Below are positions 100-47,304 of a stretch of DNA of 47,304 nucleotides, piece after piece. Position 1 is the first letter of the stretch. Every line of letters starts with the position of its first letter. Made by a program: the position numbers and the translations under genes. The notes under the pieces are model-generated. The model was not told where the DNA came from. It saw only the letters and a program-made list of their open reading frames with translations, and did no database searches. This DNA comes from a virus: IMG/VR virus record IMGVR_UViG_3300003666_000032; one strand, given 5' to 3'.

Positions 100-178
100 C
101 ATTGATGATCCTGACGATGTTGATACTGAAAAAGTAAAAAAAGCCATTGAAGTAGGCTTGTTTAAGAAGGCAAAATGA
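1..178 (+). CDS. C-terminal part of the wrap-around CI-like XRE-family repressor (5' part at 47018..47304)
   Basis: Frame 2 continues the ORF that starts at 47018 through the terminal repeat to TGA at 176-178. The joined product is about 121 aa. Confidence 0.75.
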   Translation, partial: NTNQRKNIIYTTKNELKNSIIEKNIKKAIIIDGIDDPDDVDTEKVKKAIEVGLFKKAK

Positions 179-293
179 TTAATTTATCAGAGCCTTTATA
201 ATCGGAGTTAATATATAAAATATTGTCAAGTACATAACCATATATATTACAAAATTCATCGCCAAAACTTATATATTCTTCTCTAATATGCAT
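162..293 (-). CDS. 43-aa protein, member a of a small paralogous family (LYINxxYKGSDxLxIxP)
   Basis: ATG at 293 follows GGGGAGG by 7 nt. Product is MHIREEYISFGDEFCNIYGYVLDNILYINSDYKGSDKLIILPS, similar to the ORFs at 12361..12492 and 12482..12649. It is below the ORF-track length cutoff. Confidence 0.45.
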   Translation of the reverse strand: MHIREEYISFGDEFCNIYGYVLDNILYINSDYKGSDKLIILPS

Positions 294-560: not shown

Positions 561-1949
561 ATGATAGCTGCTTTATATGTTCGTGTTAGTACAGAGGAAC
601 AAGCTCTTGAAGGGTTTAGCATAGCTGCCCAAATAAAACTATTGAAAGAATACTGTGTTAAAGAGAATATTGTGATCTATAAAGTCTATGCTGATGAAGG
701 AATCACTGGGACAATAGAAAAACGGCCACAATTTCAGCTTATGATTAAAGATGCAGAGAATAAATACTTTGATGTTGTATTGGTCCATAAATACGATAGG
801 TTTGCTCGCAGTACTGAAATTAGTACCAGGATAGAGAACCAAATAAATAAAGCCGGCATAGTCCTTATAAGTATAACAGAACCGGTCCCGGATAATCCAT
901 TTGGGTTTCTGCAAAAAAGAATGATGCAGTTATGGTCCGAGTTCTTTGTAAAGAATCTTTCAGCAGAAGTAAAAAAAGGATTAGTTGAGAGAGCATCCCA
1001 GGGATTATATACCGGATTTGTTCCGTATGGCTATAAGATAAAAAACGGGACCGTTATAGTTGAGCCAAAACAGGCTGAAATAGTTAAAAAAATATTTGAT
1101 CTATATTTATCCGGCATGGGTTACCGTGGTATTGCTGTATGGCTTAATCAAAACAAAATACCCACATCTAAACCAGGAGGAACATGGGGGCAATACCAGG
1201 TTAGTTATATCCTTACTAATGTTAGGTATATAGGTAAATTATATTATGCTGGAAAGACATACGAAGGACAGCAAGCAGCTATTATTGACGAGGATTTATT
1301 TAATACTGTACAAGCACATAAAAAAAAGAAACACGATGAATATACTTACGCAAAAAGAGGAAGTAATTTTAATAAATATCTTTTATTAGGCTTGTTGCAT
1401 TGTGGGGAATGTGGTAATGCTTACAGGGTAATAGTTAACAAGAGGTACAATCATGGTAAGCAATATAATACTTATATTTGTAATCTAGCAGCTCAGTATA
1501 AATTACAATGCGGTAATACTAAACACTATAAGACTCATCTACTCGAAGAGGATATAGAAGAATACATAGAAAAAGTATTAATGGAAAAGGAACCTCTTAT
1601 ATACGATACTCCTGAAATTGATACAAATAAAATCTTACAGGATCGTAAAGAGAAAATAGAAAGAGAATTGAACAGAGCAAGAGAAGCATACATACAAGAA
1701 ATATTTACTTTAGAGGAATATGAGGGCATAAAAAAAAGATCGATCAATGAATTGAAAGAAATTGATGTAACTATGATAAAAGAAACTAAAGTTAATAGTA
1801 AAGATAAGGCAATGTATAAAAAGCTTAAAATAGCATATCAACAGTATAAAAAGGCTAAAACAATAGAGGATAAAAAGAAAATATTATTCGGGGTAATAAG
1901 AAGGATAGAGTTAACCCGCAGGTCTTTAGAGATAACATTCTACATGTAA
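561..1949 (+). CDS. int: Large serine recombinase (phage integrase)
   Basis: The N-terminus AALYVRVSTEEQ...GFSIAAQ is a resolvase-type catalytic domain with the Ser nucleophile. The middle is a recombinase domain. A Cys cluster (HCGECG...CNLAAQYKLQCGN) forms a zinc ribbon, followed by a coiled-coil tail. SD gggg lies upstream. Confidence 0.93.
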   Translation: MIAALYVRVSTEEQALEGFSIAAQIKLLKEYCVKENIVIYKVYADEGITGTIEKRPQFQLMIKDAENKYFDVVLVHKYDRFARSTEISTRIENQINKAGIVLISITEPVPDNPFGFLQKRMMQLWSEFFVKNLSAEVKKGLVERASQGLYTGFVPYGYKIKNGTVIVEPKQAEIVKKIFDLYLSGMGYRGIAVWLNQNKIPTSKPGGTWGQYQVSYILTNVRYIGKLYYAGKTYEGQQAAIIDEDLFNTVQAHKKKKHDEYTYAKRGSNFNKYLLLGLLHCGECGNAYRVIVNKRYNHGKQYNTYICNLAAQYKLQCGNTKHYKTHLLEEDIEEYIEKVLMEKEPLIYDTPEIDTNKILQDRKEKIERELNRAREAYIQEIFTLEEYEGIKKRSINELKEIDVTMIKETKVNSKDKAMYKKLKIAYQQYKKAKTIEDKKKILFGVIRRIELTRRSLEITFYM

Positions 1950-6073: not shown

Positions 6074-6200
6074 GTCGGCGTATTATAGTTCCCTACTTTA
6101 CACCCCGCCCACGGGCTGCCTATTTATGTACCAAGGAAGCAAGTTAGGCTAACTTGCTTGTCGGGAGCGACCCTATCCTTAGTCTTTACATAATAACAAA

Positions 6201-9200
6201 TTATTCTTTCTTTGGCAACTTAATTATTCCACGATCAATTAATACTTTTACCCTTGCTATTTGGTTTGCTTCTGTTAATATTTCCGCAAGCCACTTAGTT
6301 TTAGTTAAATCAGTGCTTATTTTTGAATCATCAGGCAACGCCTTATATTCTTCTGTACTTATGATTTTATTAAAAGCGTTATTGGTAATAGTACCAAGGT
6401 ATTTTTGATAATTAACGTATTCCTCTGATGTTAATTGTATTTTATCCTTAGTCTTAGTCAATGGGTTCTGATACTCAAAAGATTTAGGAGCTACCCGAGG
6501 GAATTGATCTTTAATTCCAGTCGCATCATACAACCTTAATATTTCTTCCTGTACAGGAGTCGGGTCATATTTCGTTGTAAATCCAGGGTTTAACATTACA
6601 TTCCATACATTGTTTTTACCCTGATAAGCTTTTACGTCATTGCCTAAAGTATCCTGTTTAATAGGCAATGTTTTAGTGGCAAAAGGTATCTTAGCAACAA
6701 ATTTATTCTTAGCCTGTTTGAATGGGTTGGGGTCATAAGTTTCCCTAACATAAGGGTCGATCAATTGGGATATTTGTTTTCCGCCGGTTGGCGCTGCTTG
6801 CAAAGGTGCCCCTAGTAATGTTTTACCGAATCCAATTACAGGAGAATATCCGCTAAACATGCTTGTTAATCCTTGGAACATTGACTGTTTAACTAGTGTA
6901 TTACCTGCACCTTCTACCCCTGCCATTGCTGAACTAAGGAAATCCTTTTTATCTTTCCCTGAATAATATGCATCTGCTCCCATAGCTAACATTCCAGACA
7001 TAGGTTGTGCCCAGTCATATGTATGGTATGTATTCCCTATTTTAATAGCATACGGGCTTTTACCTGCGTTCTTTTCCATGTCTGCAACATCTTTATCGCT
7101 GTTTGGCTTGCCTGTTATAATGCCTTTTTTAGCCATAACATAACCCAAAATACCAATACCAGTTCCTGTTAAAGCCCTTCCAATTCTATCAGCAAATAGT
7201 TTTTGGTTAAATGTTCCTTTTCCTGCCGTTGTTCCTAAATGGTATATACCTTTTGCAAATCCACCTGGGCTATAGTCAATAAGTTTATCAAGTACATTTG
7301 CAGGAGTTTGGGTAAATGGCATTACTATATCTCCTACTATACCAAATCCATCTCTTATTTTCTTTACTCTTTGTGCTAAATCAGAATTATTTTGAAATAC
7401 TTTATCTAATGCATACAATTTAGACTGTTCTTCTATTTCAGTAGCCGTTAACTTGGTTTTATTGGTTTTGTTAAGTTTATTTAATTCTATCATCCTTGAA
7501 TTTTTCCAAGACTCGTAAAATGGTCTATCGCCTAATTGTAGCATTCTCCTTTCTACTTGATCAACAAAATTTAATATATCGCTCTTGGCATCTAATACCT
7601 TATTTACTGCTTTAAACCTTGTTTCTGTAGTATTTTTAAATATTCTTTTATTAGGTAATTCCATCATTCCTCTAGCAGGTGACGTATCAATTTTATTTTT
7701 AACATCACTAGCCCAACCTTTAACGCCCTTACCTAATCCGGAAACTTGACCTTCTTTTAATATTCCATACTTAGGCAATAAGGTTGTTCTATTGCCAGTT
7801 TTAAAGCTCATAACCTTATCTAATAATGTTGTGGGGATATCTTTTATATTTTCTGCTGTTCCCAATATAACATTACTTAGAGGGTTTTTGACTACTAATG
7901 ATTTTATACCTGATAGTAAAGATATCCTTTGAAGACCTTTAAATTTTTCTTTTGATGTTGCCGGTAACCTATCTGCTATTCTTTGCATAACTTTAGCAAA
8001 TTCTATTTTACTTACCCTATCTTCGGTAGCATTTTTAAACTTCTCCATATGCTCAAGAATAAATTTAGTATCTTCAGGAGTTGGTTGTAAATCCCGTATA
8101 ACCTTCGGTAATAGCTTCTGCTTTCCTGCAAATAACTGTAGGTTAACTTCTATCATTCCGTCAATATCGTCCAATTCTTTTGCCAACGCTGCTGTCTTAC
8201 CTTCTGCTTTTATACGAGATTCAACTTTTGCCTTTCTAGCATTTAAACTGTCAATTTTACTTTGCACGGCTTTAAGCTCAGCTTTAATTTCTGTATGTTT
8301 AGGTGTCTCAATTTTACTTGCGGCATTTTCCCATTGTTTATAAGCATATTTAAGCATACCTTGTGGCGTTTGCCTTTTCCACATTGAAGCAGCTTGAATT
8401 GCTTGACCGTGTTCTGTAAGGTCGGTTGTTACTTTATCAAGTATCCTATTTACTTCATCAAATTTACCTTCTGCATTGTACTTATCAATCAATGCCATTC
8501 CTGTTGCTACATCATCAGCACTAGAAGAATCCGCTTTAGTTAATATATCTGTCATTGCTTTATCCGGATTTTTATTTACTCTTTCTGTAGCCGCTTTCCA
8601 TGTTGCATCATTATGTTTTATTTCGTATGGAGTATCAGGAATAGTACTTTTTAACTCAGGGCTTATTCTTTCTGAATTCTTAACTGTCTGACCAAATTTA
8701 CTTATACCTTTCTGTAAAGGTTCTTTTAGCGCATACGTCTTTTTGATTTTAGGCGGTTGTGCTTCTCCTGCTTTCCCTAGTGCGGCTCTTGCTCTTTCCA
8801 CCATGTCAGGTGGGTATTGAGTTGGGTTATTTGCTATCCTCTGTAAAGTTTCTTTACTTGCTGATTGTGGTCCTTTAGGCGTATACTTAACTTCATCTAA
8901 CGGAACTCCTGTATTGCTACCTTCGATTTTGACATATCTCCTGCCGTTTATTTCGCCTAAATCTCCGACAACTTTTATAGGTTGGTCACCAGACTTGTTT
9001 CCCCAAGTAGCCTCACCAAGTTTTATTTCGGGCAAAATTTTAGCACCCTGTTTAGGTGCTACCGGTTGTGGGTTCTGTGCATTATCTATCATTTTATTAA
9101 GATTGCCAAATTTAGATTTAGGTATAAATTCAGGTTTTCCATCTTGTACCTTTTGGAAAGGTTTAGGTAAAGGTCGTTGCTGTGGGGTATATGTTTCCTT

Positions 9201-10367
9201 TATGCCCGCTGGAAGCTTAACGGGGTCTTTAGGTTCTAAGGCTTTCTGTATGGCTATTTTCTCTTGCATTGTTAGCGGTTTTCCATCTTTTACTTTTTTT
9301 ATTATGCCGCCTATAGTTCCAAGTCCTGTACCTAATCCAAACGCAAATAGTGATTCAAGACCGACTTTCTTTGCCGTATCTGCTGCATTAAGCCCTTGGA
9401 ATTGAGCTTGACCAAATGATACAGGAGCAATAGAAGTTGCACCCTCTATACCACCCCTAAGAGCATTGTTTACTACCTTACCGCCTACTTTCTGGAGTCC
9501 TTTGCTTTCAAGTTTGGCTACTACATTTTTGCCAATCTGATTACCTATATTGCCAAACGATGTTCCTGCACCGCTTGGTTGTGCAAAGCTCCCAATAGTT
9601 CCTATTGTATCAGCCGCAAAATTAGCAAGCGGAAATCCTAAATCTGTATCACTTGATACTCCACCGGTGGCTTCATAAAGTCTGTCGGATACTCTTCCTC
9701 CAAATTTCATTAAGGCGTTTGGCTCCTTAACCGGCGAACTTCCTAATTTAACCTTTTCTTTCGACCACTCTTGTTTACTAGGTAGCTTTTCGGATGCAAT
9801 ATTCTTCTTTATACTTACCAAGCTTCCATCAGATAGCCTAGTATAATAATAACTCTTACTCTCTGCTACTGCTACATGCTTTACAGGGTCCGTCATTTCG
9901 CCAGTGTTATCATTTTTGTACTGATAAATTGTCTTAGGCTTAATAGACGATGGTATTTCAGCGCTACCCAAAAACCCTTCTATTTTGTTGCCTAAAGTTA
10001 TTTTATTGTCGGTGCTATCATTCCTATCATATACCTTTTCATAAGGTCTTGCATAGTTTTCTTGAGCCTTAGTATAATCTTTAATACCTTGTTTTATTGT
10101 TGGCTTACCTATTTTATTCATTAGATTTTGAGTAATCGGAGTCGGTTTAGGGTCCGAAAACTTTGCAGGTCCAAACACACTTTCAAGCCTTTTCTGTACA
10201 GGGACTTTGCTTACTTGAGATAAATTATCCTGTAATTGCTGTTGCTGTAATTGAACCTGCTTATTCTGATACTCTACCGATTTTGTATTATCCATTTCCC
10301 ATGAAGGTAAATTTATATTTGATTTACTACTTGTATCGGTTTCCCATGAAGGCTTTGCGAATGCCAT
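6201..10367 (-). CDS. Very large virion protein (1388 aa), possibly internal/ejection or tape-measure-like
   Basis: Long ORF with AAGGGGG SD. It has Gly-rich hydrophobic segments and coiled-coil stretches, and lies at the end of the structural module. Confidence 0.8.
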   Translation of the reverse strand: MAFAKPSWETDTSSKSNINLPSWEMDNTKSVEYQNKQVQLQQQQLQDNLSQVSKVPVQKRLESVFGPAKFSDPKPTPITQNLMNKIGKPTIKQGIKDYTKAQENYARPYEKVYDRNDSTDNKITLGNKIEGFLGSAEIPSSIKPKTIYQYKNDNTGEMTDPVKHVAVAESKSYYYTRLSDGSLVSIKKNIASEKLPSKQEWSKEKVKLGSSPVKEPNALMKFGGRVSDRLYEATGGVSSDTDLGFPLANFAADTIGTIGSFAQPSGAGTSFGNIGNQIGKNVVAKLESKGLQKVGGKVVNNALRGGIEGATSIAPVSFGQAQFQGLNAADTAKKVGLESLFAFGLGTGLGTIGGIIKKVKDGKPLTMQEKIAIQKALEPKDPVKLPAGIKETYTPQQRPLPKPFQKVQDGKPEFIPKSKFGNLNKMIDNAQNPQPVAPKQGAKILPEIKLGEATWGNKSGDQPIKVVGDLGEINGRRYVKIEGSNTGVPLDEVKYTPKGPQSASKETLQRIANNPTQYPPDMVERARAALGKAGEAQPPKIKKTYALKEPLQKGISKFGQTVKNSERISPELKSTIPDTPYEIKHNDATWKAATERVNKNPDKAMTDILTKADSSSADDVATGMALIDKYNAEGKFDEVNRILDKVTTDLTEHGQAIQAASMWKRQTPQGMLKYAYKQWENAASKIETPKHTEIKAELKAVQSKIDSLNARKAKVESRIKAEGKTAALAKELDDIDGMIEVNLQLFAGKQKLLPKVIRDLQPTPEDTKFILEHMEKFKNATEDRVSKIEFAKVMQRIADRLPATSKEKFKGLQRISLLSGIKSLVVKNPLSNVILGTAENIKDIPTTLLDKVMSFKTGNRTTLLPKYGILKEGQVSGLGKGVKGWASDVKNKIDTSPARGMMELPNKRIFKNTTETRFKAVNKVLDAKSDILNFVDQVERRMLQLGDRPFYESWKNSRMIELNKLNKTNKTKLTATEIEEQSKLYALDKVFQNNSDLAQRVKKIRDGFGIVGDIVMPFTQTPANVLDKLIDYSPGGFAKGIYHLGTTAGKGTFNQKLFADRIGRALTGTGIGILGYVMAKKGIITGKPNSDKDVADMEKNAGKSPYAIKIGNTYHTYDWAQPMSGMLAMGADAYYSGKDKKDFLSSAMAGVEGAGNTLVKQSMFQGLTSMFSGYSPVIGFGKTLLGAPLQAAPTGGKQISQLIDPYVRETYDPNPFKQAKNKFVAKIPFATKTLPIKQDTLGNDVKAYQGKNNVWNVMLNPGFTTKYDPTPVQEEILRLYDATGIKDQFPRVAPKSFEYQNPLTKTKDKIQLTSEEYVNYQKYLGTITNNAFNKIISTEEYKALPDDSKISTDLTKTKWLAEILTEANQIARVKVLIDRGIIKLPKKE

Positions 10368-10379
10368 AATATTACCCCC

Positions 10380-11423
10380 TTAAGGTTGTGTAAACAGTCC
10401 AAGATAATTGTTTGACTTAGGATTAACATAATTATCTAAGAATTTATATACATCAGTTCCAGCGTTTTGTATTATTTCTTTCGCATGTTCGTTAAGCCAT
10501 TTTTGCTTTGACTTTTGGTCAGGCATTTGGTTTAACTGTCCCATTGAAGAAGCAGCCCAATAATCAGTAGCGCCTTCGTTACCTTTTGCGTTAACTTGAG
10601 ACATTTTATAAATATTATCTGGATTTTTGTCACTCATAGACCAATTTAAAGCAGCCCATTGTCTTGCATTATCCGCTGAAACATTGCCCAAACTTGCGTT
10701 CTTGTATATTTGATCTGCTGCATAAGTCTTATCCCTATATGCTTGGTCTGCTGTAGGCTTACCATTATATACTCCAGTTAATCCAGCTTCGGCTACTCCA
10801 CGGTTAAAACTACTATCCTGTGCTGCTTGAGTTCTGTATGGACCACCGTATTTCTGCAATAGGTTCATATCACCGAATATCTTATTTATCCTTGCTGTTT
10901 CCAAATCGGATATCATTGCATCGTCTGCTGTGTCAGGAGTTGCTTTCCTCCTGTTTATTTCAGCCATGTAATTCCCTTCATATTGGTTAGTTGCAGGATT
11001 AATTGGTTTGCCTAAAACAGGATTACCATACCCTAAGGCTGAGTATATACGCTCTTGACGGTTTAAGGTGTCTTGATACCTGTTATAGTTCTGCTGTTCT
11101 GCTTCTGGAAGGTAATCTACAGCCCTTTGATAAAATGGTTGTGCTGCTTGGGCTCCTGCTTGTGTTGCTGCTCCTACTGCATAAGAACTCGGCATGCCTC
11201 CACTCATAGCAGATAATGAAGCAATGGAGCTGTTTGTGGTTCTCTTCGCTAGTTGGTCTCCTGCTGTCTCGTTAGCTGTTTTATACAGGTTATATGTTGC
11301 ATTTGTAGCAGGGTTAAAGTTTCCATACGGTGAACCGCCACCCCATGCATTAGGGTCTGGTTTCTTCTTATAAGCATTCGTTAATGTTTTTAAACCTGAG
11401 GTTAAACCTGGATATATATTCAT
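10380..11423 (-). CDS. Virion-associated protein (347 aa), function unknown
   Basis: ATG at 11423 lies 9 nt after AAAGGAG. The protein is rich in Q, N, A and G. Confidence 0.7.
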   Translation of the reverse strand: MNIYPGLTSGLKTLTNAYKKKPDPNAWGGGSPYGNFNPATNATYNLYKTANETAGDQLAKRTTNSSIASLSAMSGGMPSSYAVGAATQAGAQAAQPFYQRAVDYLPEAEQQNYNRYQDTLNRQERIYSALGYGNPVLGKPINPATNQYEGNYMAEINRRKATPDTADDAMISDLETARINKIFGDMNLLQKYGGPYRTQAAQDSSFNRGVAEAGLTGVYNGKPTADQAYRDKTYAADQIYKNASLGNVSADNARQWAALNWSMSDKNPDNIYKMSQVNAKGNEGATDYWAASSMGQLNQMPDQKSKQKWLNEHAKEIIQNAGTDVYKFLDNYVNPKSNNYLGLFTQP

Positions 11424-11461
11424 GTATACCGCTCCTTTCTTCATTGTATACTTGTATACAA
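11423..11461. promoter_or_regulatory. Three TGTATAC heptamers, including an 18-bp palindrome
   Basis: TGTATAC occurs at 11423-29, 11445-51 and 11453-59. ttgtatac-tt-gtatacaa (11444-11461) is a palindrome between the terminator and the start codon. Confidence 0.35.
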
Positions 11462-11468
11462 TAGTCCA

Positions 11469-11500
11469 ATAAAAAAGGAACCGCTTTTACACGATTCCTT
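11469..11500 (-). terminator. Rho-independent terminator closing the rha module
   Basis: On the minus strand: aaggaatcg-tgtaaaag-cggttcctt followed by tttttt. Confidence 0.6.
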
Positions 11501-11510
11501 AATTCTTTTT

Positions 11511-11637
11511 TACTGAGCTCAAAATTGAGCTCAGTATTATTTCCACTGAGCCCATTATTCGGCTCAGTATTATTTTTACTGCCCCCAAATTTGGGGGCAG
11601 TGGTTTTTGTAATTTTTTCTTCGATTTTAAATCGAAG
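11511..11637. repeat. Array of four consecutive perfect stem-loops with conserved ACTG...CAGT clamps and ATTATTT spacers
   Basis: The four stem-loops are tactgagctcaaaattgagctcagta (11511-36), cactgagcc-cattattc-ggctcagt (11544-68), actgcccccaaatttgggggcagt (11578-601) and cttcgattttaaatcgaag (11619-37). Confidence 0.85.
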
Positions 11638-11686
11638 TATTATTTTGCTTCGCTTTCTTTTCTCATTTTAAAATCCTCCTATACCA

Positions 11687-12361
11687 TTATGCGCCTATTT
11701 GCCTTATACTAATCCTCTTGAAATATTCTGTCAATATTCTTTTTCTTTCAGCATAGTTAGGCGTAGTAAGTATTATGCCTATGTCAATTTTTTGAAGAGT
11801 TTTAACCGCTTTAATTTGTTCAGGCTGTAAATATGGTCTTATGCTTTTAACCTTTGAATCAATTCCGTTTTCCTCCTTAAACTTTTTAGCAGGAATACCC
11901 AGAACAACGCTATTAATCATATCCAATTCATTTGAAAAGTGATACCATTTAGGGTCTTCATGTGCTGCCATAATTGCGTCAGTAAATTCGGGGAAATCTG
12001 CTTTTGCTTCAAGTAAGTCTTTTATGAATTCTTCCATTTGGTTGAAACGATTTATGTATGCTTCTTTAAATTGCGATGCCTTTTTCCCACTATATCCCAT
12101 AACAAGAAATGTGAACCCATCTTTGGTTAATAAATATTCGGGATACTTTTTACCTCTTTCAATATAATTTGACGGCCGAAAATTCGGCTGTGAAAATTTT
12201 TCACTGAGCCCATTTTTCGGCTCAGTGATTTTTCTTATAGAGTCAAGAACATGTTTATGGTCTTTATTGAAAATCTCTGCTATTTTCCTACTACTTACCA
12301 CAGGAACACCTTTTAGTTCTTCAACTCCATATATATCATTTAATACTAATTTATTATCCAT
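11687..12361 (-). CDS. rha: Rha-family phage regulatory protein / antirepressor
   Basis: The N-terminus VVSSRKIAEIFNKDHKHVLDSIRKI matches the Phage_pRha motif. The central region is YLLTKDGFTFLVMGYSGKKASQFKEAYINRFNQME. Confidence 0.85.
   Translation of the reverse strand: MDNKLVLNDIYGVEELKGVPVVSSRKIAEIFNKDHKHVLDSIRKITEPKNGLSEKFSQPNFRPSNYIERGKKYPEYLLTKDGFTFLVMGYSGKKASQFKEAYINRFNQMEEFIKDLLEAKADFPEFTDAIMAAHEDPKWYHFSNELDMINSVVLGIPAKKFKEENGIDSKVKSIRPYLQPEQIKAVKTLQKIDIGIILTTPNYAERKRILTEYFKRISIRQIGA
12202..12227. repeat. Intragenic copy of the array stem-loop
   Basis: cactgagcccatttttcggctcagt matches 11544-11568 at 24 of 25 positions. A second hairpin, cggccgaaaattcggctg, lies at 12173-12190. Confidence 0.85.
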
Positions 12362-12492
12362 TACAATACCTCCTGAGGAATAATTGTTAAATTGTCAGAC
12401 CCTTTATAATTTGGATTTATGTACAATTCGCCATCAATTATACAGCCGTAAACTCCACTTAATTCATTGATAAGGCTTGTGTGTTTATCCAT
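12361..12492 (-). CDS. 43-aa protein, member b of the small paralogous family
   Basis: Product is MDKHTSLINELSGVYGCIIDGELYINPNYKGSDNLTIIPQEVL. GAGGAGG SD. Its stop overlaps the rha ATG (TAATG). Confidence 0.5.
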   Translation of the reverse strand: MDKHTSLINELSGVYGCIIDGELYINPNYKGSDNLTIIPQEVL

Positions 12493-12649
12493 TAAAAGAT
12501 ACCTCCTCATCCAACGATATAATTACAGTTTTTTCTCCTTTATATGCGTAATTATCATTAATAAATAATACGCCCTTATAATAGACACTCTTTATATGAT
12601 TAAACTTTCTCTCCAATGTAACATGAATATCGTTACCTATTTTTCCCAT
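12482..12649 (-). CDS. 55-aa protein, divergent member c of the small paralogous family
   Basis: Product is MGKIGNDIHVTLERKFNHIKSVYYKGVLFINDNYAYKGEKTVIISLDEEVSFNG. CAGGAGG SD. It overlaps the next gene by 11 nt. Confidence 0.5.
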
Positions 12650-12675
12650 AAAAAATCCTCCTGTAATATTTTTTC

Positions 12676-12704
12676 TTTACACGAGGTCACACCTATACTA
12701 TAAT
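12676..12704 (+). promoter_or_regulatory. Near-consensus plus-strand promoter inside the minus-strand module
   Basis: TTTACA (12676-81), exactly 17 nt, TATAAT (12699-704). Confidence 0.45.
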
Positions 12705-12710
12705 ATAGAT

Positions 12711-12780
12711 GTAACCTTTAGTGGTTTAGGAAGTCTTTTTTGCTTTGCGGGCGATAGACTTCCTTTTAATTTTCACTTTT
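12711..12780 (+). ncRNA. Candidate 60-70-nt antisense sRNA (sar-like)
   Basis: The predicted transcription start (TSS) is about 12711. A 9-bp stem aggaagtct / agacttcct (12729-37, 12756-64) is followed by ttttaattttcacttttttt. It is antisense to the 3' end of the RHH gene and the intercistronic region. Confidence 0.3.
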
Positions 12781-12903
12781 TTTGAAATGCTCTTCTAAAA
12801 TTTGTTCTAATAAATCATTAAACCTTAAATCCTTTTTAACGGCTTCAATTTTTAATTTCTTTATCAACTCCTCGTCAATTATAGTTGCAAATTTCTTTTT
12901 CAA
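12766..12903 (-). CDS. Ribbon-helix-helix (Arc/CopG-like) protein, 45 aa, TTG start
   Basis: GGGAGG lies 8-9 nt upstream of the TTG start. The sequence KKKFATIIDEELIKKLKIEAVKKDLRFNDLLEQILEEHF has the RHH beta-strand plus two-helix pattern. Confidence 0.6.
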   Translation of the reverse strand: MKKKFATIIDEELIKKLKIEAVKKDLRFNDLLEQILEEHFKKSEN

Positions 12904-12938
12904 TATAAATACCTCCCTTCATGTATTAGTATATTCTG

Positions 12939-12952
12939 CTTTTCATGAAAAG
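12939..12952. promoter_or_regulatory. Perfect 14-bp palindrome CTTTTCATGAAAAG, candidate operator of the RHH protein
   Basis: It lies between a possible -35 (TTTACT) and -10 (TATACT) on the minus strand, upstream of the RHH gene. Confidence 0.45.
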
Positions 12953-12980
12953 TAAAGAGGTATTTATAAATTTTTACAAA

Positions 12981-13009
12981 TAAAAAGAACACCTCGGATA
13001 AAGTGTTCT
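12981..13009 (-). terminator. Rho-independent terminator after the membrane-protein gene
   Basis: On the minus strand: agaacac-tttatccgag-gtgttct followed by ttttatttg. Confidence 0.6.
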
Positions 13010-13064
13010 ATGTTATTCATTTGAGTCTATAAATTTTTCTAAAATTGAGGGTTCTTTTCAACTT

Positions 13065-13520
13065 TTAATATTTTTTTGTTGTTTTAACCATTGTTTTTAT
13101 ATTTTCAGCCATTAGTAAAGTTGATATGATATCTTCTTTATTATTAATATCAAAGTATTGATTATATATAAAATATTTATGGTAATTACAAACATATTCT
13201 TCTATATGAGTTTCAGTATAACCAGTAGAACCATATCCAAGAAGTATAGTAATTACCATTCCCGCTAAATAGGCTATAAGATTTAAATTACTTGCAAAAC
13301 AATATGTTAATAAAGTTAATAAAACTAATATTATACTCCATGTAAAAATTGTACTTAAATTTCTTTTTGTTATTAACTTACTGTCATTAAGTAAATTTTG
13401 ATGATTTAATTCTTTTGTATATGGAATACTGAATCTTATTACGGTTAACATTTGTATAACCCCAAAACTTCCAATAAAATAACCTAATATTAAAAACAGA
13501 AATGCTATCACATATTGCAT
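13065..13520 (-). CDS. Multi-pass membrane protein (151 aa), accessory
   Basis: At least three hydrophobic helices. GAGGGGG SD. Confidence 0.7.
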   Translation of the reverse strand: MQYVIAFLFLILGYFIGSFGVIQMLTVIRFSIPYTKELNHQNLLNDSKLITKRNLSTIFTWSIILVLLTLLTYCFASNLNLIAYLAGMVITILLGYGSTGYTETHIEEYVCNYHKYFIYNQYFDINNKEDIISTLLMAENIKTMVKTTKKY

Positions 13521-13561
13521 ATATAAATCCCCCTCAAAATAATTTTATTTGCAATAAGTTT

Positions 13562-14158
13562 TTACATTTCCGCCCAAAGAGTATCACCTGCTATAGTATA
13601 TTTAAGTCCACAGGCTTCTATATCAATGTAAGTAAGACCATTTACATTTATAGCTTTATCAGTAACAGTATTACCTTGCTTTATTAAAATAGGCTCTTTG
13701 TTAGAAAGTTTAAAATAAATATTTTGAGTATTATTTTCATTTTCCACATCTATATTTCCTGCTTGGCGAAAAACCTCTAATGCAACATAACATTTATTTT
13801 TACTAAAAACAATAGGCATAACAGGATAACCGCCAGAATTAAAATTAAAAGTATTGGATTTTATTTTTAATTCATTAGCATTTATTGTTGGTTTAATAGT
13901 TTTGCCTACTTCAACTCTTTTCAATTCCGTATTCCATTCTACAGGTACACTTAAAGCGTTTCCCATAGAACGCAATGGTAAATAAGTACTTCCGTCAATT
14001 ACTACGGCTGGCTTGTCAGTATTGGAAAACTTTTCTCCATTGACAAGAATGTCAAACCCTGCCTTTTCAGCTTTAAACACATTTACCGTGGATGCCATAG
14101 TCTGAAATCCTATGCACACAAGCATACCAATAATAAAACCAAATAATACTTTTTTCAT
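13562..14158 (-). CDS. Secreted protein with a copper-amine-oxidase-N-like domain
   Basis: The N-terminal signal peptide is MKKVLFGFIIGMLVCIGFQTMA. VIDGSTYLPLRSMGNALSVPVEWN resembles the Cu_amine_oxidN1 motif. Confidence 0.7.
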   Translation of the reverse strand: MKKVLFGFIIGMLVCIGFQTMASTVNVFKAEKAGFDILVNGEKFSNTDKPAVVIDGSTYLPLRSMGNALSVPVEWNTELKRVEVGKTIKPTINANELKIKSNTFNFNSGGYPVMPIVFSKNKCYVALEVFRQAGNIDVENENNTQNIYFKLSNKEPILIKQGNTVTDKAINVNGLTYIDIEACGLKYTIAGDTLWAEM

Positions 14159-14219
14159 AATAAATCATCCCCCTTTTTGATCTTTATATTTCCATCGTAT
14201 ACCAATAGGGGAATAAATG

Positions 14220-14864
14220 TCAAGTCATGGTAACTGTTTTTATGGTTCCATCGGGAAGCCTTGCTTTTAAAGCCGTACCGTCATAGTAAAGTTTTATTTT
14301 GCCCGTCTCTGCGGTAGGTGCTGTCTGCGTAGTTAATGCCATATTATCAATATTTGCAATTGGAATATTAATAGTTCCTGCAAAATTTGTGTTACATTCA
14401 GAAGCGCCTATACTTAAAGCTTTACCTGTTTCTGGTTTTAACGAAGTGCCTTCCAATGCATTATAAATTGTAAACAGTTTTGTACCATTAGAGTAAAAGC
14501 TAACATCACCATATTGAACATCAGATTTGTCTATACAAAACCCATTAAGCTTATTATCTGTATTATAGCACTTAATCTGATTCTCTGATATCTCAACCCT
14601 TTTTCCTGTAGCTGCTGTCCTTATAGTACCTCCTGTTATAGTACCACCTGTTATCAAAGGACTGATTATTTCAATCAATGCCTTTATAGTTCCTGCTGTT
14701 ATCTTACTAGCTGATATCTCCCTGACATTGTTAGTGTCAAGCATACCGTCCAATAGGTTTAAAAGCTGCCGTTGCATCACCATATAACAATCAGTAAGAT
14801 TACGAATCATTTTTTCATTATCGGTTTTGTTTGGGTCTTGTGGTGTTTTTAAATTTAAATTCAT
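14220..14864 (-). CDS. Tail fibre-like protein
   Basis: ITAGTIK and TGGTITGGTI repeats. It abuts the upstream tail gene. Confidence 0.65.
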   Translation of the reverse strand: MNLNLKTPQDPNKTDNEKMIRNLTDCYMVMQRQLLNLLDGMLDTNNVREISASKITAGTIKALIEIISPLITGGTITGGTIRTAATGKRVEISENQIKCYNTDNKLNGFCIDKSDVQYGDVSFYSNGTKLFTIYNALEGTSLKPETGKALSIGASECNTNFAGTINIPIANIDNMALTTQTAPTAETGKIKLYYDGTALKARLPDGTIKTVTMT

Positions 14865-16646
14865 TTATACTCCTCCTCCGGGAATTACCCCTGTTCCTAT
14901 TTCATGTATTTTATATGATCCTGTTCCGGTTATTTTTAACTGTACATGATCTAATCTTTTTGGCATTAATTTTATTTCGTATGTGGTCAAAGCTGTTACT
15001 GCAATAGTTTTTAAAGAAACAAAACTACCGTTGTCTTGTTTCATATGCACAGATACTGTACCTGATACTACTTCGAGCCTTATAAATACTTTGGTTACAT
15101 ACTTTTTGATATAACTGCCGTATGTTTCTACATTCAGTATCCCTTCACTGTTTATTGATTCTGTACCGGAATTGAACTTTATCATATTCCCCGATGAATC
15201 AAGGGCGTATAGATAACCACCCATTTTCGCAAAGTCTATAACCTGTAAACTGTCTTCTTGCATCCATAGCCCAAATTGGTCATAAACATAAAGCTTATAA
15301 GATGTACCATTATAAATAGAACAATACACCCTTTTATTATCCGTTCCACATACTGCTAAAACGTAAGTTTCGTTTAATGCATCAGATTCAGGGCGAGGAA
15401 ATCCCCCGCCATAGGATACAATACCCTTTTTATCGTTCAAAAAATATAGCATTCCATTAAACTCAACGATTGATTTATGAGATATTCCGCCCTCTTTTAT
15501 TACTCCCTTTATTCTGTAAGGCGGATTTTCGTTGTATATCTCAAATAATATATCTCGTTTCATAGCGATAATATAAGTATTATATGACGCTATTCCAGTA
15601 AAACTTCCCTTTAAATCAGTTTCGCCAGCATAAGCGAAATCCAGTGTATTGAAGTCTATAGTGAATGGCTCAAACAAATTATATCTTCCAAGTCCACTGA
15701 CATAGATTGTATCGTTTTTTACTCCCCATATGCGGTTATTATGGGAACATCCGTAGTCCATAGCCGGTACAGGAATTTTTATTGTTATTGCTTCGGCAAC
15801 GGCGCTTGGGTACAAATCGTTATAGTTGAATGACAATATGCTGCTTGAAACTCCTTTTATTTCGATGGTTTTGTTATTAAGTTTCTTTGTTGTGTTACCG
15901 GATATTTTAACATAGTCAGCTACAGCAAATCCACTAAAAGCTGTACCAGTTGTTGTTATACTGCTAAATCCAAACGATAATGAGGTTGTTGCTAATTCTG
16001 ATCCTGCCGTAAATGAAGCAGCTGCAAATCTTAACACAGTGGTAGAAACTACTTCTAATATTGTAAAATATCCTTCGTTCTCGGGGTACTTTGTATTACC
16101 TGTTATTTTTAGCGTGTTCCCGGCTGTCATATCTGCGTTCCAAGTTGCTCCAGAAATAGTTATCCTATCAGATGCAAATGTAACAGTTGAACCATCAGCA
16201 ACAGTTTGCAACACATTCTTATATGTAATTTGAGAAGCTCCCGAAGTATAGGAAGGATTCATTATCCCGAAGGTGTCTAACACAATGTCATAATACATTA
16301 AGTCTGGCAATATAATTATTTTATTCCCAAACTGAAACATGTTCTTAGTGCTTGATGCTAGAGCAATTGTGTTCTTTTTTACAGTATCATAATAAAAGTC
16401 AGTACCAGACACCCAATACAGTTTATCTTCTGTTGCTCCCATACCTTGGGGCGTTAAAATTGTCCTTATTGTTTCCCTAGAAGGTCTAGGTGACATATAC
16501 GGTAAATTGTCAGTTGACAGGTTTGTTGTGCTGCTAAACTCACCTGTTTTAATCTCTGCATTGCGGTTTAAACCTAAAAACTTTTGTGAAACAGTTTTTA
16601 CAGATGCATTTTTAGGTATAAGGTTAGGGTCTACAAGAGGTATCAT
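14865..16646 (-). CDS. Tail/baseplate structural protein (593 aa)
   Basis: The start is reset to ATG 16646 (GGAAGGA 9 nt upstream), after the upstream stop at 16678. The sequence is beta-rich. Confidence 0.7.
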   Translation of the reverse strand: MIPLVDPNLIPKNASVKTVSQKFLGLNRNAEIKTGEFSSTTNLSTDNLPYMSPRPSRETIRTILTPQGMGATEDKLYWVSGTDFYYDTVKKNTIALASSTKNMFQFGNKIIILPDLMYYDIVLDTFGIMNPSYTSGASQITYKNVLQTVADGSTVTFASDRITISGATWNADMTAGNTLKITGNTKYPENEGYFTILEVVSTTVLRFAAASFTAGSELATTSLSFGFSSITTTGTAFSGFAVADYVKISGNTTKKLNNKTIEIKGVSSSILSFNYNDLYPSAVAEAITIKIPVPAMDYGCSHNNRIWGVKNDTIYVSGLGRYNLFEPFTIDFNTLDFAYAGETDLKGSFTGIASYNTYIIAMKRDILFEIYNENPPYRIKGVIKEGGISHKSIVEFNGMLYFLNDKKGIVSYGGGFPRPESDALNETYVLAVCGTDNKRVYCSIYNGTSYKLYVYDQFGLWMQEDSLQVIDFAKMGGYLYALDSSGNMIKFNSGTESINSEGILNVETYGSYIKKYVTKVFIRLEVVSGTVSVHMKQDNGSFVSLKTIAVTALTTYEIKLMPKRLDHVQLKITGTGSYKIHEIGTGVIPGGGV

Positions 16647-31411: not shown

Positions 31412-31909
31412 TCACCCCACATTGTCAAGGGGAATGTCGGCTACGTGTCGTTTATGTGTCGTTTTTGTACTTTGCATATGCTTAAGCTGTATTTTTAGAA
31501 TGATATCGCAGTCAATATGTTTGCACCTTTCTTCACTTTTGTGTACTCTATCGCCTATTTCTACCCAGTTATATTTTGCTCTTCCGATCGGTATTTCTAA
31601 GTATCTCCATCTTATTATTTCTTTTTGGTCTTCGGGGATATAAAATATAATTGAGTTTATAGATAATAGTAACCTCATTTTGTGGTCTAATTCGTCCTCC
31701 AGCCTCTCCATATATTCTACCCTTGTTAATGCCATAAGTTCCGTTTTAGATGTATTACTATGGTGTATAGGCATATCTGTTATTACTTGTGCCTTAATAC
31801 CTGATATATCCATCCTTCTGTACTGGTCTAATGCTTCCTGTAGGTTCTTAACCTCTACTTTTAAGTTATCATAGTTGTGTAAGTAAAATCTTATTTCATT
31901 TGTATTCAT
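31412..31909 (-). CDS. ArpU/RinA-like late transcriptional activator (sigma region-4-like)
   Basis: QKEIIRWRYLE...WVEIGDRV resembles the phage late activator/DUF1492 families. It is the last gene before the packaging module. The start is ATG 31909, after AGGTGGTAGGTG. Confidence 0.55.
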   Translation of the reverse strand: MNTNEIRFYLHNYDNLKVEVKNLQEALDQYRRMDISGIKAQVITDMPIHHSNTSKTELMALTRVEYMERLEDELDHKMRLLLSINSIIFYIPEDQKEIIRWRYLEIPIGRAKYNWVEIGDRVHKSEERCKHIDCDIILKIQLKHMQSTKTTHKRHVADIPLDNVG

Positions 31910-31939
31910 AAACACACCTACCACCTTTCTCAAATGGCT

Positions 31940-43867: not shown

Positions 43868-44605
43868 TCATGATTGTTTTATATCCTTTATACTTCTTAT
43901 GTAATTTATTGCACCAAGGTATTCGGATAAATATTGTGGATTATTTTTATGAGTTTCGTTTACCTTGGCTTCAAACTCTTCCAATGTACCTTCGAAACAA
44001 CCACACCATATACTGTCAGTATCAAAGCAGTAAGTTGTGCTATCCTTTCTACTGCCTATACATGAAATAACAATATATCGATTATCTGTTCCTGCACCGC
44101 TGAGGTCTGCACCGCTGAGGTTTGCACCGCTGAGGTTTGCACAGCTGAGGTCTGCACCGCTGAGGTCTGCACAGCTGAGGTTTGCACAGCTGAGGTTTGC
44201 ACGTCTGAGGTTTGCACCGCTGAGGTCTGCACCGCTGAGGTTTGCACCGCTGAGGTTTGCACGTCTGAGGTTTGCACCGCTGAGGTTTGCACCGCTGAGG
44301 TTTGCACAGCTGAGGTCTGCACCGCTGAGGTCTGCACAGCTGAGGTCTGCACCGCTGAGGTTTGCACCGCTGAGGTTTGCACCGCTGAGGTCTGCACAGC
44401 TGAGGTCTGCACAGCTGAGGTTTGCACAGCTGAGGTTTGCACCGCTGAGGTTTGCACCGCTGAGGTTTGCACCGCTGAGGTTTGCACAGCTGAGGTCTGC
44501 ACAGCTGAGGTCTGCACAGCTGAGGTTTGCACGTCTTCCACCCTCTTTGTTTTCAAGCCATTTTTTGTGATTTTCCAATATTTGTTTTAATTCTGCATTA
44601 TCCAT
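43868..44605 (-). CDS. Pentapeptide-repeat protein with a C-terminal globular domain
   Basis: About 30 consecutive A(N/D)LS(G/C) pentapeptides, typical of the family. The N-terminus is [25 protein letters not shown]. Confidence 0.85.
44094..44528. repeat. 29 tandem copies of a 15-bp unit (gcacNNctgaggtYt)
   Basis: 12 of 15 positions are invariant in all 29 copies. Only positions 5-6 (cg/ag/gt) and 14 (c/t) vary. Confidence 0.95.
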
Positions 44606-45593: not shown

Positions 45594-45594
45594 A

Positions 45595-46646: not shown

Positions 46647-46871
46647 TTATGCTGATTTTATACCCGCATCGTGGATTTTTACATCAAAAAAAATTTCTTC
46701 ATACGGTAAATTAAAAAGAGCCTTTATTTTTTCAATTTCAGTTATTGTAAAATCTCTTTTACCGTTGATTTTTAAATTAAAAGTGCTTAGATCAATACCT
46801 AATTTATCTGCAATATCAGATTGCTTAAGTTTATGCAAAGACATTAACGCTTTAAGTTTTAAATGTTCCAT
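46647..46871 (-). CDS. Cro-like XRE-family HTH protein
   Basis: LKQSDIADKLGIDLSTFNLKINGKR. It is divergent from the CI-like gene. Confidence 0.8.
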   Translation of the reverse strand: MEHLKLKALMSLHKLKQSDIADKLGIDLSTFNLKINGKRDFTITEIEKIKALFNLPYEEIFFDVKIHDAGIKSA

Positions 46872-47017: not shown

Positions 47018-47304
47018 ATGAATTTTAGTGATAGATTGAAATTTTTACGTGAAGAACTTGGATTGAAGCAAATTGAATTATCTGAAAAATTAAACATGTC
47101 TAACTCTACTTATAATAATTATGAAATAGGAATAAGAACGCCAGATATAGAGACTATTAAAATTATAGCTAATTTTTTTGATGTTTCAGTTGATTACATT
47201 GTTGGCAATACAAATCAAAGGAAAAATATAATTTACACAACTAAGAATGAATTAAAAAACAGTATTATTGAAAAAAATATTAAAAAAGCAATTATAATTG
47301 ACGG
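47018..47304 (+). CDS. CI-like XRE-family repressor, N-terminal part (continues at 1..178 across the circular junction)
   Basis: MNFSDRLKFLREELGLKQIELSEKLNMSNSTYNNYEIGIRTPDIETIKIIANFFDVSVDYIVG, with GGAGG SD. There is no S24 peptidase domain. Confidence 0.8.
   Translation, partial: MNFSDRLKFLREELGLKQIELSEKLNMSNSTYNNYEIGIRTPDIETIKIIANFFDVSVDYIVGNTNQRKNIIYTTKNELKNSIIEKNIKKAIIID
47206..47304. repeat. Second copy of the 99-bp terminal repeat
   Basis: Identical to 1..99. Confidence 0.95.

Follow-up and report, generated by a model that had tools for sequence, protein, structure and literature searches.

Organization of the locus

The DNA of the IMG/VR virus record IMGVR_UViG_3300003666_000032 (47,304 bases; called the window, meaning this whole stretch) derives from a temperate, podovirus-like (short-tailed) phage. 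Between its tail genes and two internal virion-protein genes lies a group of small genes that is very probably a genuine autonomous regulatory cassette, with a promoter and a putative ribbon-helix-helix (RHH) gene in front, a structured leader opposed by a predicted antisense RNA in the middle, and two small open reading frames (smORFs) and a gene of the Rha family as cargo. An initial annotation of this DNA had described a self-contained unit within the late structural region, and this description stands, with terminators on both flanks and a promoter-like site of its own. In the direction of transcription, the elements are as follows:

12986..13009, − strand: intrinsic terminator at the 5′ border (AGAACAC..GTGTTCT, then a T-run), which ends the upstream accessory genes
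12957-12968 and 12904-12915: the two arms of a perfect 12-nt inverted repeat around the cassette promoter
12956-12928, − strand: cassette promoter of the sigma-70 type, TTTACT-17-TATACT
12939-12952: perfect 14-bp palindrome CTTTTCATGAAAAG, which occupies the promoter spacer
12766..12903, − strand: RHH gene, 45 amino acids, TTG start, the first gene of the cassette
12676..12770, + strand: predicted counter-transcript unit with promoter, start, and terminator, overlapping the RHH stop codon
12650..12765, − strand: structured sense leader with three hairpins
12485..12649, − strand: smORF-A, 54 amino acids, of a small family that we call "LYIN-NYKG"
12361..12492, − strand: smORF-B, 43 amino acids from the ATG at 12492 chosen by the gene caller, 49 amino acids if the start is at 12510
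11687..12361, − strand: Rha, 224 amino acids, with the Phage_pRha domain at residues 22-111
11475..11500, − strand: intrinsic terminator that closes the cassette

Relatives of this region are scarce in public data. A blastn search of the region against 50,697 phage records gave only short matches to the Rha gene at about 74% identity and no relative at the DNA level, and an exact-protein look-up with Rha gave no identical record. Scans of IMG/VR with the tail-fibre protein, Rha, and the smORF alignment yielded no confirmed match, and DNA patterns of the conserved leader (n = 2) had zero matches in viral, metagenome, and genome collections. The loci used for comparison, designated L001 to L014, came via protein look-ups, and the comparative set amounts to three to four independent loci.

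In L001, whose Rha is 75% identical, the equivalent site is made up of a tail-fibre homolog, a Cu_amine_oxidN1 protein, a promoter, a 43-amino-acid RHH protein, a leader, an unrelated 87-amino-acid ORF, Rha, a terminator, and the virion protein. Loci L005 to L007, found through the virion protein, have a terminator, promoter, palindrome, and RHH gene nearly identical to those of the window, followed by a 116-amino-acid Peptidase_M78 protein (ImmA/IrrE-like, HELGH motif, 8.4e-9) and a 275-amino-acid ORF6N protein. L014, a 41.7-kb phage contig found through a homolog of the tiny proteins, carries at this site a divergent 116-amino-acid helix-turn-helix (HTH) repressor and a 66-amino-acid HTH protein (a CI/Cro-like pair), a leader, a 48-amino-acid smORF of the window's family, a 45-amino-acid smORF, a 273-amino-acid ORF6N protein, and the virion proteins. 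In L008, rha immediately precedes the gene of the virion-protein homolog, without an RHH gene and with a different hairpin ahead of rha. Since the cargo at the equivalent site differs among L001, L005, L008, and L014, the site upstream of the virion-protein gene appears to be a hot spot for independently regulated cassettes, and the cargos found there all seem to be gene types that are associated with repressor control. The window cassette has its own promoter and terminator, and its presence varies among otherwise syntenic phages; it is thus a moron in the sense of the Hendrix/Juhala definition. P22-like phages are known to have a variable and independently expressed "ant moron," often with ant, mnt, arc, and sar (PMC2629481), and the repressor-inactivating cargo of the relatives strengthens the reading of the window cassette as a second immunity region of this kind.

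Borders, promoter, and RHH gene

The terminator at the 5′ border has a near-identical counterpart ahead of the L005 cassette, and a closing terminator follows rha in L001 as well (by reading of the sequence). The region between the membrane-protein gene upstream and the RHH gene (12904-13064) holds only the terminator and the promoter, and no divergent small ORF is present there. It could be argued that the cassette consists of ordinary late genes, co-transcribed with the structural operon, and that the promoter- and terminator-like sequences arose by chance. Indeed, all genes of the cassette lie on the late-operon strand, and promoter-like sites are, overall, not enriched (26 versus 22.7 expected). 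Terminator-like sites are, however, strongly enriched in the region from 10300 to 14900 (12 versus 2.3 expected); promoter, palindrome, and antisense promoter are kept across loci while the coding sequence diverges; and the gene content of the site varies among phages with common flanking structural genes. We therefore consider this explanation very improbable.

The palindrome, already seen in the initial annotation, is unique in the window, even if two mismatches are allowed, although by itself it is not significant, with at least one match in 37 of 100 shuffled sequences. It is presumed to be the operator of the RHH protein. Promoter and palindrome are kept in L005, whose RHH protein is 93% identical. 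In L001, whose RHH protein is 49% identical, a direct repeat of two copies of TGACTATA stands in the place of the palindrome (by reading of the sequence), and the N-terminal strand of the RHH protein is different too (KFQTTL instead of KFATII in the window). Regulator and operator thus appear to co-vary among the window, L005, and L001.

The 45-amino-acid ORF proposed in the initial annotation is present, and its RHH character is weak by sequence and supported by the predicted fold. The best Pfam matches (CopG_antitoxin, 0.0023; RHH_10, 0.024) are below the cut-off, so that the profile search suggested there for an RHH_1/Arc assignment fell short for this protein; in PHROG, an Arc-like family was found with 7e-5. 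A sequence search of the PDB with the protein and its three-sequence profile returned only SvtR (2kel; E, 0.09-0.3). The single-sequence AlphaFold2 (AF2) model has an extended N terminus and two confident helices (pLDDT 83), and in a Foldseek search of the PDB, most of the matches listed, the top ones included, were RHH proteins (CopG, Arc, PutA, and an RHH antitoxin; TM 0.65-0.78), with E values of >0.3, which are not significant. None of these lines of evidence is significant alone, but they agree, and the protein probably has an RHH fold. From its position, which corresponds to that of Arc, it is presumed to be an autorepressor.

An RHH protein at this place could also be the antitoxin and autorepressor of a toxin-antitoxin or abortive infection system, in which the small proteins or Rha would be the toxin. 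CopG_antitoxin as the best Pfam match, RHH antitoxins among the Foldseek matches, and the succession of an RHH gene and small ORFs with autoregulation from a palindrome, as is typical of type II systems, are in line with this. On the other hand, no toxin family in Pfam, NCBIfam, or PADLOC was matched; a structured leader of 116 nt with an antisense promoter between the two partners would be atypical; in relatives, an M78 peptidase and ORF6N can take the place of the cargo; and a paralog of the tiny genes stands alone beside the phage repressor CI, without an RHH partner. In our view, a toxin-antitoxin system is highly unlikely.

Leader and antisense RNA

The 116-nt spacer between the RHH gene and the cargo had been noted for a near-consensus promoter on the opposite strand, and this promoter is present (TTTACA-17-TATAAT, 12676-12704, + strand) and matches the consensus in 11 of 12 positions. 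Only five sites in the 47-kb genome score as well; three of the other four correspond by position to expected promoters, namely, the one for early genes between cI and cro, that of smORF-C (a paralog of smORF-B, see below), and that of an accessory gene on the + strand. Transcription is predicted to start near 12711 and to end at a terminator hairpin (12728-12764, followed by TTTT), which would give an antisense RNA of about 57 nt complementary to the leader between RHH gene and cargo. Antisense promoters are found at the equivalent place in L001 (TTTACA-17-TATAAT), L005 (TTGTCA-17-TATAAT), and L014 (TTGATT-17-TATAAT), with scores of 10 to 11 out of 12 in the four loci and different −35 hexamers. 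In L014, the sequence around this promoter is unrelated and the upstream regulator is of the HTH type. The antisense terminator consists in each case of a hairpin with a TTTT(T) tail next to the stop codon of the regulator, and its stem shows, by reading of the alignment, compensatory changes (GGAAGTCT/AGACTTCC, GGAAGTTG/CAACTTCC, and GGAAGCC/GGCTTCC; in L014, CCCTAT/ATAGGG). Furthermore, the predicted antisense RNAs of 57 to 65 nt fold better than their sense complements by 4 to 8 kcal/mol in all four loci because the inner G.U pairs exist only on the antisense strand. Because antisense promoter and terminator are kept in four loci despite the turnover of sequence, a counter-transcript of about 57 nt that resembles sar or OOP is credible. 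An Rfam scan of the cassette assigned no family to it: the best matches were at chance level, and none of the sar, c4, and OOP models matched.

The leader itself is unusually structured (z-score of the fold, −5.6). Hairpin 1 extends from 12729 to 12763 and hairpin 2 from 12684 to 12717 (13 bp), while in hairpin 3, CCUC..GUGUAA pairs with UUACA..GGAGG and covers the Shine-Dalgarno sequence of the first cargo gene (12656-12662). The leader folds alike in three loci and also in L014, and the ribosome-binding site (RBS) of the first cargo gene is sequestered in all four. Hairpin 2 is 100% paired in three loci, where switches between G.U and G-C or A-U keep the pairing only on the sense strand. We also considered hairpin 2 as an operator of CI and rejected this since it has no likeness to the TGTGGAWTT repeats of the cI-cro intergenic region.

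The predicted antisense RNA, whose end is upstream of the cargo RBS, would not pair with that site. Since it stops short of this site, and since the site is masked either way, an action of the antisense RNA, if any, would be by transcriptional interference or by duplex-dependent processing and not by occlusion of the RBS as known for sar.

A second level of control may come from the inverted repeat around the cassette promoter, whose arm at 12957-12968 is complementary to the Shine-Dalgarno and start region of the RHH gene (12904-12915). In RNA that reads through from upstream, this anti-Shine-Dalgarno sequence is predicted to pair with the RHH Shine-Dalgarno sequence in the window, in L005, and in L001, with sequences that differ among the three. 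Read-through RNA must pass the cassette because virion and lysis genes lie beyond it, and this pairing suggests that late transcripts can cross the cassette without its being translated.

As a side observation, the unrelated phage locus L003 has (7490-7590) a promoter composed of TATAAT and a LexA box, followed directly by a hairpin, GGAAGTC..GACTTCC, and TTTT. Stem and loop of this hairpin resemble hairpin 1 of the cassette, and the unit may give rise to a short SOS-induced RNA.

Cargo proteins

Both tiny genes of the initial annotation are present. Their mutual paralogy is weak (30% identity between smORF-A and smORF-B; E, 2e-4). smORF-B shares 8 nt with smORF-A and a single nucleotide with rha (TAATG), and because of these overlaps, the string smORF-A/smORF-B/Rha is probably translationally coupled. 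The tiny proteins had no family match in Pfam, NCBIfam, or PADLOC, defence and anti-defence families included. A word-indexed homolog search with the smORF profile returned only the window's own proteins, and a full HMMER scan of 1.8 billion representative sequences found only three further true members of the family, with 39 to 48 amino acids. The AF2 model of the smORF is a beta-hairpin only.

The assignment of the large cargo protein to the Rha family is secure by sequence comparison. It matches Pfam Phage_pRha (PF09669) with 1.3e-32 and 112.6 bits (cut-off, 29.9), as the profile check suggested earlier had anticipated, and TIGR02681 with 2.6e-27 and 95 bits (cut-off, 45.95). It has 1143 homologs at E ≤ 1e-10, and its C-terminal half is conserved across the Rha family. 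A homolog of the P22 antirepressor Ant would be expected to have the domains P22_AR_N and P22_AR_C or domains of the ANT/KilAC type. A Pfam scan of the 224-amino-acid protein at E ≤ 0.1 gave Phage_pRha only and none of the P22 Ant domains. In the PHROGs, the Rha N-domain is common to families labelled anti-repressor, and the best full-length family is labelled "transcriptional regulator." The initial annotation had called the protein a Rha-family antirepressor; the family holds, and the antirepressor role is an annotation only and, as such, unproven.

This raises the question of whether the cassette is a generic moron, with Rha as a DNA-binding regulator of host or phage transcription, a role suggested for the Rha proteins of phi80, P22, and ES18, tiny ORFs that are unrelated accessory peptides, and no repressor as target, in which case the RHH protein and the antisense RNA would only set the level of expression. 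The PHROG label of the full-length family would fit. Homologs of Rha with about 60% identity (L003 and L004) are ordinary genes of early operons just after a cro-like gene. Moreover, gp79 of phage ES18 is homologous to Rha along its full length (34% identity) and carries an annotation of similarity to P22 Rha. Its gene follows the lysis genes and a terminator, and the only phenotype given for it, as for the P22/ES18 lineage of Rha, concerns growth in hosts that lack the integration host factor (IHF). What speaks against a generic moron is the cargo of the relatives, an ImmA-like peptidase with ORF6N in one case and a CI/Cro-like pair with smORFs and ORF6N in another, which points to the control of repressors, and the smORFs themselves, which overlap rha and whose paralog is linked with both CI and a LexA box. 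On balance, we consider a generic moron unlikely.

A smORF paralog next to the CI repressor

The strongest lead toward a function of the tiny proteins was missed in the initial annotation and lies outside the coordinates given there, where a third tiny gene is convergent with the repressor gene behind a LexA-box promoter:

47018..47304, continued at 100..178, + strand: CI-like repressor, 121 amino acids, HTH_3 only, crossing the circular junction
162..293, − strand: smORF-C, 43 amino acids, with a good Shine-Dalgarno sequence; convergent with cI, 17-nt 3′ overlap
382-353, − strand: smORF-C promoter TTAACA-18-TATAAT
367-339, − strand: smORF-C promoter TTGATT-17-TATAAT
318-329: GAAC-N4-GTTC box within AGAACATTAGTTCT, after the smORF-C promoters; the only one in the genome

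A repressor of about 121 amino acids without an S24 domain had been claimed before; read across the junction, CI has indeed this length, and a domain search found HTH_3 and no S24 peptidase domain. smORF-C is 41% identical to smORF-B (E, 5e-12). Both of its promoters are near consensus, and GAAC-N4-GTTC corresponds to the core of the LexA (Cheo) box known from Gram-positive bacteria. Transcription of smORF-C would also run antisense into cI.

The same arrangement recurs in other phages. In L013 (449-612), a 43-amino-acid member of the family overlaps a 120-amino-acid CI homolog by 17 nt behind the promoter TTGATT-17-TATAAT-N7-GAACATTCGTTC; this CI is 46% identical to that of the window over its full length and the smORF 42%, so that both have diverged in step. 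In L004 (8913-9156), a family member overlaps a 157-amino-acid HTH repressor and is located behind TATAAT-N12-CGAACAAACGTTCG. Upstream of smORF-C and its counterparts in L013 and L004, the GAAC-N4-GTTC box thus follows TATAAT at a distance of 7 to 12 nt. In L009 (5325-6291, within a 278-kb bacterial contig), four small ORFs are divergent from the gene of a 50-amino-acid RHH protein (RHH_5, 5e-5). Three of these ORFs are tandem members of the tiny family, and the group adjoins tRNA gene-like sequence and an integrase fragment. The fourth small family, ISLGVPFIKSIG, co-occurs in L009 and L014.

The smORF family therefore appears to be tied repeatedly to phage repressors, be they of the HTH or the RHH type. 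A promoter with a LexA box on a small gene, together with a repressor that does not cleave itself, is found with smORF-C and not with the cassette, which itself has no LexA box. The paralog smORF-C, with its LexA-box promoter and its tail-to-tail position to an S24-less CI, makes the tiny proteins likelier antirepressor candidates than Rha.

A model for antirepression from the late region

We give an even chance to a model in which the cassette is of the "ant-moron" type and acts as a complete antirepressor system. In our model, the RHH protein binds the palindrome and would shut its own promoter, as does Arc of P22. The cargo would be made as a pulse after entry into a cell that is free of RHH protein, or upon loss of the RHH protein. 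In lysogens, the antisense RNA or its promoter and the RBS hairpin may hold cargo translation low, and on late read-through RNA, the upstream anti-Shine-Dalgarno sequence would silence translation of the RHH gene. The cargo would inactivate repressors of the CI type without cleavage, the smORFs by binding to them. smORF-C would then be the antirepressor triggered by the SOS response and the copies in the cassette a second, SOS-independent route. Rha (or ORF6N in the relatives) may be the DNA-binding partner of the smORFs or a second antirepressor.

A number of points weigh against this model. Negative autoregulation by a co-transcribed repressor does not, on its own, give tight silencing in the lysogen, and no Mnt-like maintenance repressor is present. 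The RHH assignment includes the Pfam matches below the cut-off and the nonsignificant Foldseek values given above. The RNA elements rest on three to four independent loci, and the pair counts have no statistical power; a switch in which the antisense RNA acts on the RBS hairpin is unsupported, since folds computed under constraint mask the RBS whether the antisense RNA is present or absent. Members of the smORF family are few and contain no known domain, and smORF-A is only weakly related to the other tiny genes. In a single genome, the LexA box is not significant (at least one match in 23% of the shuffled sequences), and its weight comes from its position and its recurrence in only three phages. 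As to Rha, we found no demonstration of antirepressor activity for a member of the family in the literature, and the early-operon homologs and the IHF phenotype of ES18 gp79 mentioned above point elsewhere.

The pulse after entry could also serve another end. As an inter-phage weapon or anti-defence device, the cargo would inactivate the repressors of other prophages or elements, of which Ant of P22 is capable, or counter a host defence, and spare the phage's own CI; this alternative overlaps with the antirepressor model. A promoter of its own with an autorepressor in the position of Arc would give such a pulse upon infection, and the turnover of cargo among close relatives resembles that of an arms-race locus. 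Cross-acting antirepressors are documented (PMC3121763), and the C terminus of Rha (residues 134-213; 11687-12090) has a weak match (1.6e-5) to the PADLOC candidate defence family PDC-S22. However, smORF-B is paralogous to the smORF adjacent to the phage's own CI, which suggests a single class of targets, and none of the small proteins matched a defence or anti-defence family. A weapon that spares the phage's own CI is, to our mind, quite unlikely.

The antirepressor model may be taken a step further. The "LYIN-NYKG" smORFs (about 40 to 55 amino acids) might represent an unrecognised family of antirepressors with two inputs in phages of Clostridia-type bacteria, and the cassette a convergently evolved, modular immI; we put this forward as a tentative possibility, on the doubtful side. 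On the first count, the copy next to CI would be released by cleavage of LexA, and the paralogs in the cassette would be gated by the RHH autorepressor, the small counter-RNA, and two RNA folds that mask ribosome-binding sites and would keep the cassette silent during late read-through. On the second count, one and the same front end would serve different cargos: smORFs and Rha, an ImmA-like protease and ORF6N, or smORFs and ORF6N.

Comparison with known systems

We regard the cassette as a likely functional analog of immI of P22 (mnt, arc, sar, and ant, next to sieA) and not as a homolog. Both are units under separate control that are inserted in the late operon of a temperate phage with a short tail, and both differ in content from one relative to the next (PMC2629481). 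Further likenesses are the small RHH repressor (putative in our case), encoded upstream of the cargo and co-transcribed with it from a promoter that contains an operator, the short counter-transcript (predicted in our case) from a promoter between repressor and cargo, the antirepressor-type cargo, and the adjoining genes for membrane and secreted accessory proteins. In contrast to P22, the cargo has a Rha domain and neither P22 Ant domains nor sequence homology to Ant, and the large protein is coupled with two tiny ones. A single co-transcribed RHH protein occupies the position of Arc, and a divergent Mnt is absent, although L014 has a divergent HTH repressor. Whereas sar of P22 pairs with the RBS of ant, the RNA predicted here would pair with the leader immediately after the RHH gene, and the cargo RBS is hidden by a hairpin in cis. 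The host, finally, is presumably a Gram-positive bacterium of low GC content. The earlier statement that the region mirrors immI is thus upheld for its position, the Arc-like first gene, the predicted counter-transcript, and the type of cargo, and given up with regard to Ant homology, Mnt, and the target of the RNA.

The cassette and its smORF-C paralog also seem to share features with LexA-gated small antirepressors and with modules of a transcription factor and a smORF (TF-smORF modules). Like Tum of phage 186, AntC of N15, and GfoA, GfhA, and GftA of the Gifsy phages, smORF-C is a small protein behind a LexA-box promoter in a phage whose repressor does not cleave itself. Paralogous antirepressors under LexA control may act in trans (PMC3121763). 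Unlike these proteins, to which it has no detectable homology, smORF-C belongs to a phage of a presumably Gram-positive host lineage and lies tail to tail with cI and not outside the immunity region, and its extra paralogs in the window would be under the control of RHH protein and antisense RNA and not of LexA. In the TF-smORF modules of Vibrio and Aeromonas phages (Silpe et al. 2023), a transcription factor is located beside an orphan smORF that inactivates cI without cleavage (PMC10432266). These modules and AimX of arbitrium phages provide a route of induction that is independent of the SOS response and can adjoin late genes (PMC10432266; 10.1101/2025.11.23.689978). There, the transcription factor activates a divergent smORF, whereas the regulator in the window is co-directional with the smORFs in one operon and probably a repressor, and an antisense RNA and a large partner (Rha or ORF6N) are added. 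The layout of L009, with an RHH gene divergent from smORFs, is closer to the Vibrio modules.

The metalloprotease antirepressors of the ImmA/ImmR type (ICEBs1; MpaR of a Listeria phage) have a counterpart in the Peptidase_M78 protein (HExxH) of the L005 cassette. The window has no M78 gene, however, and the canonical ImmA adjoins its HTH repressor rather than lying in a late region behind an RHH gene. In immI of phages P1 and P7 (c4, icd, and ant), a small RNA holds the antirepressor operon off, and a small upstream ORF is translationally coupled to the antirepressor; the c4 RNA is processed from its own transcript and acts upstream of icd. The RNA predicted for the window differs in being a true counter-transcript.

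Detailed knowledge of secondary immunity and antirepressor regions comes almost exclusively from enterobacterial phages (P22 immI, P1 immI, Gifsy, 186, and N15), and induction modules based on small proteins are known to date from Vibrio and Bacillus phages; our literature searches turned up no account of an immI-like cassette in the late region of a short-tailed phage of Gram-positive bacteria. If our model is true, the logic of immI (autorepressor, antisense RNA, and antirepressor inside a late operon) arose independently in phages of anaerobic Firmicutes, and its control front end would be a portable part that takes different repressor-inactivating cargos. The LexA-gated 43-amino-acid protein and its LexA-independent paralogs would then be a candidate route of induction for prophages with noncleavable CI in gut or anaerobic Clostridia, which bears on prophage induction and on the competition between co-resident prophages. 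As regards practical use, the conserved combination of promoter, counter-promoter, and RBS-masking leader would be a compact natural "default-off" switch of expression.

Genome context and neighboring genes

The first 99 bases of the window are repeated exactly and in direct orientation at its end (1-99 = 47206-47304). Because both ends carry these same bases, the assembly closes into a circle of about 47.2 kb. Its GC content is 35.7%. Named homologs of Rha are from Oxobacter, Caloramator, Alkalibaculum, and uncultured Clostridia, and the host is presumably a Gram-positive bacterium of low GC content that probably belongs to the Clostridia. Nearly every gene of the window is on the − strand. 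In gene order, the cro-like gene is followed by replication and early genes, the sigma-like gene, and then the genes for terminase, portal, and capsid, those for the tail (as far as 14220), the cassette region, the two internal virion-protein genes, and lysis genes, with the recombinase after a few accessory genes beyond these. The features outside the regulatory unit proper are listed here:

46647..46871, − strand: cro-like HTH gene
31412..31933: weak sigma-like gene, after the replication and early genes in gene order
13562..14158, − strand: secreted protein with signal peptide and Cu_amine_oxidN1 (Pfam, 8.7e-13)
13065..13520, − strand: membrane protein, 151 amino acids, multi-pass, no family match
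11511..11637: hairpin array of four hairpins, three of them at a period of 33 nt, terminator-like on the + strand
10380..11444 and 6201..10367, − strand: internal virion-protein genes (PHROG, "internal virion protein")
561..1949, + strand: serine recombinase

The first virion-protein ORF has 354 codons from 11444 and 347 in the version of the gene caller; its true start is probably at 11423, in agreement with the initial annotation. The membrane and secreted proteins named there upstream of the cassette (13065..14158) were both recovered. The membrane protein is accessory and is not found at the equivalent site of L001. The gene of the secreted protein has a promoter-like site of its own (TTGACA-18-TACGAT, 14223-14194, − strand), and the same hexamers, TTGACA and TACGAT, are found in L001 at about 7033-7062 (by reading of the sequence). 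Homologs of the secreted protein precede the cassette in L001, L005, and L014, and in L008 and L009, similar signal-peptide proteins are encoded alongside on the opposite strand. The secreted protein is therefore a conserved neighbor outside the regulatory unit; it may serve lysogenic conversion or exclusion.

The stem-loops that had been reported together with the terminator between rha and the virion-protein gene are those of the hairpin array. The palindrome ACTGAGC-N10-GCTCAGT has exactly three copies in the genome, two of them in the array and one inside rha (12203-12226), and all three look like intrinsic terminators on the + strand. This palindrome is not present in any of the related loci, and L001 does not have the array. 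The hairpin inside rha was considered as the mark of a mobile element; this was rejected, as the peptide encoded there, TEPKNGLSE, is conserved in many Rha homologs. Between the rha stop codon and the array, a mini-ORF of 8 codons (MRKESEAK; 11640-11666, − strand) is preceded by a strong AGGAGG Shine-Dalgarno sequence.

Elsewhere in the window, Rfam int-alpA RNA was matched at 6118-6183 on the − strand (37.4 bits versus a gathering threshold of 35.8; E, 3e-4), between the gene of the 1388-amino-acid virion protein and a putative holin gene. An early protein of 245 amino acids (43868-44605, − strand) consists mostly of pentapeptide-like repeats, A[ND]LS[GC], and two adjoining early genes after cro (44817-46632, − strand) encode a ParB_N-domain protein (345 amino acids) and a DUF6551/GmrSD_N-like protein (278 amino acids).

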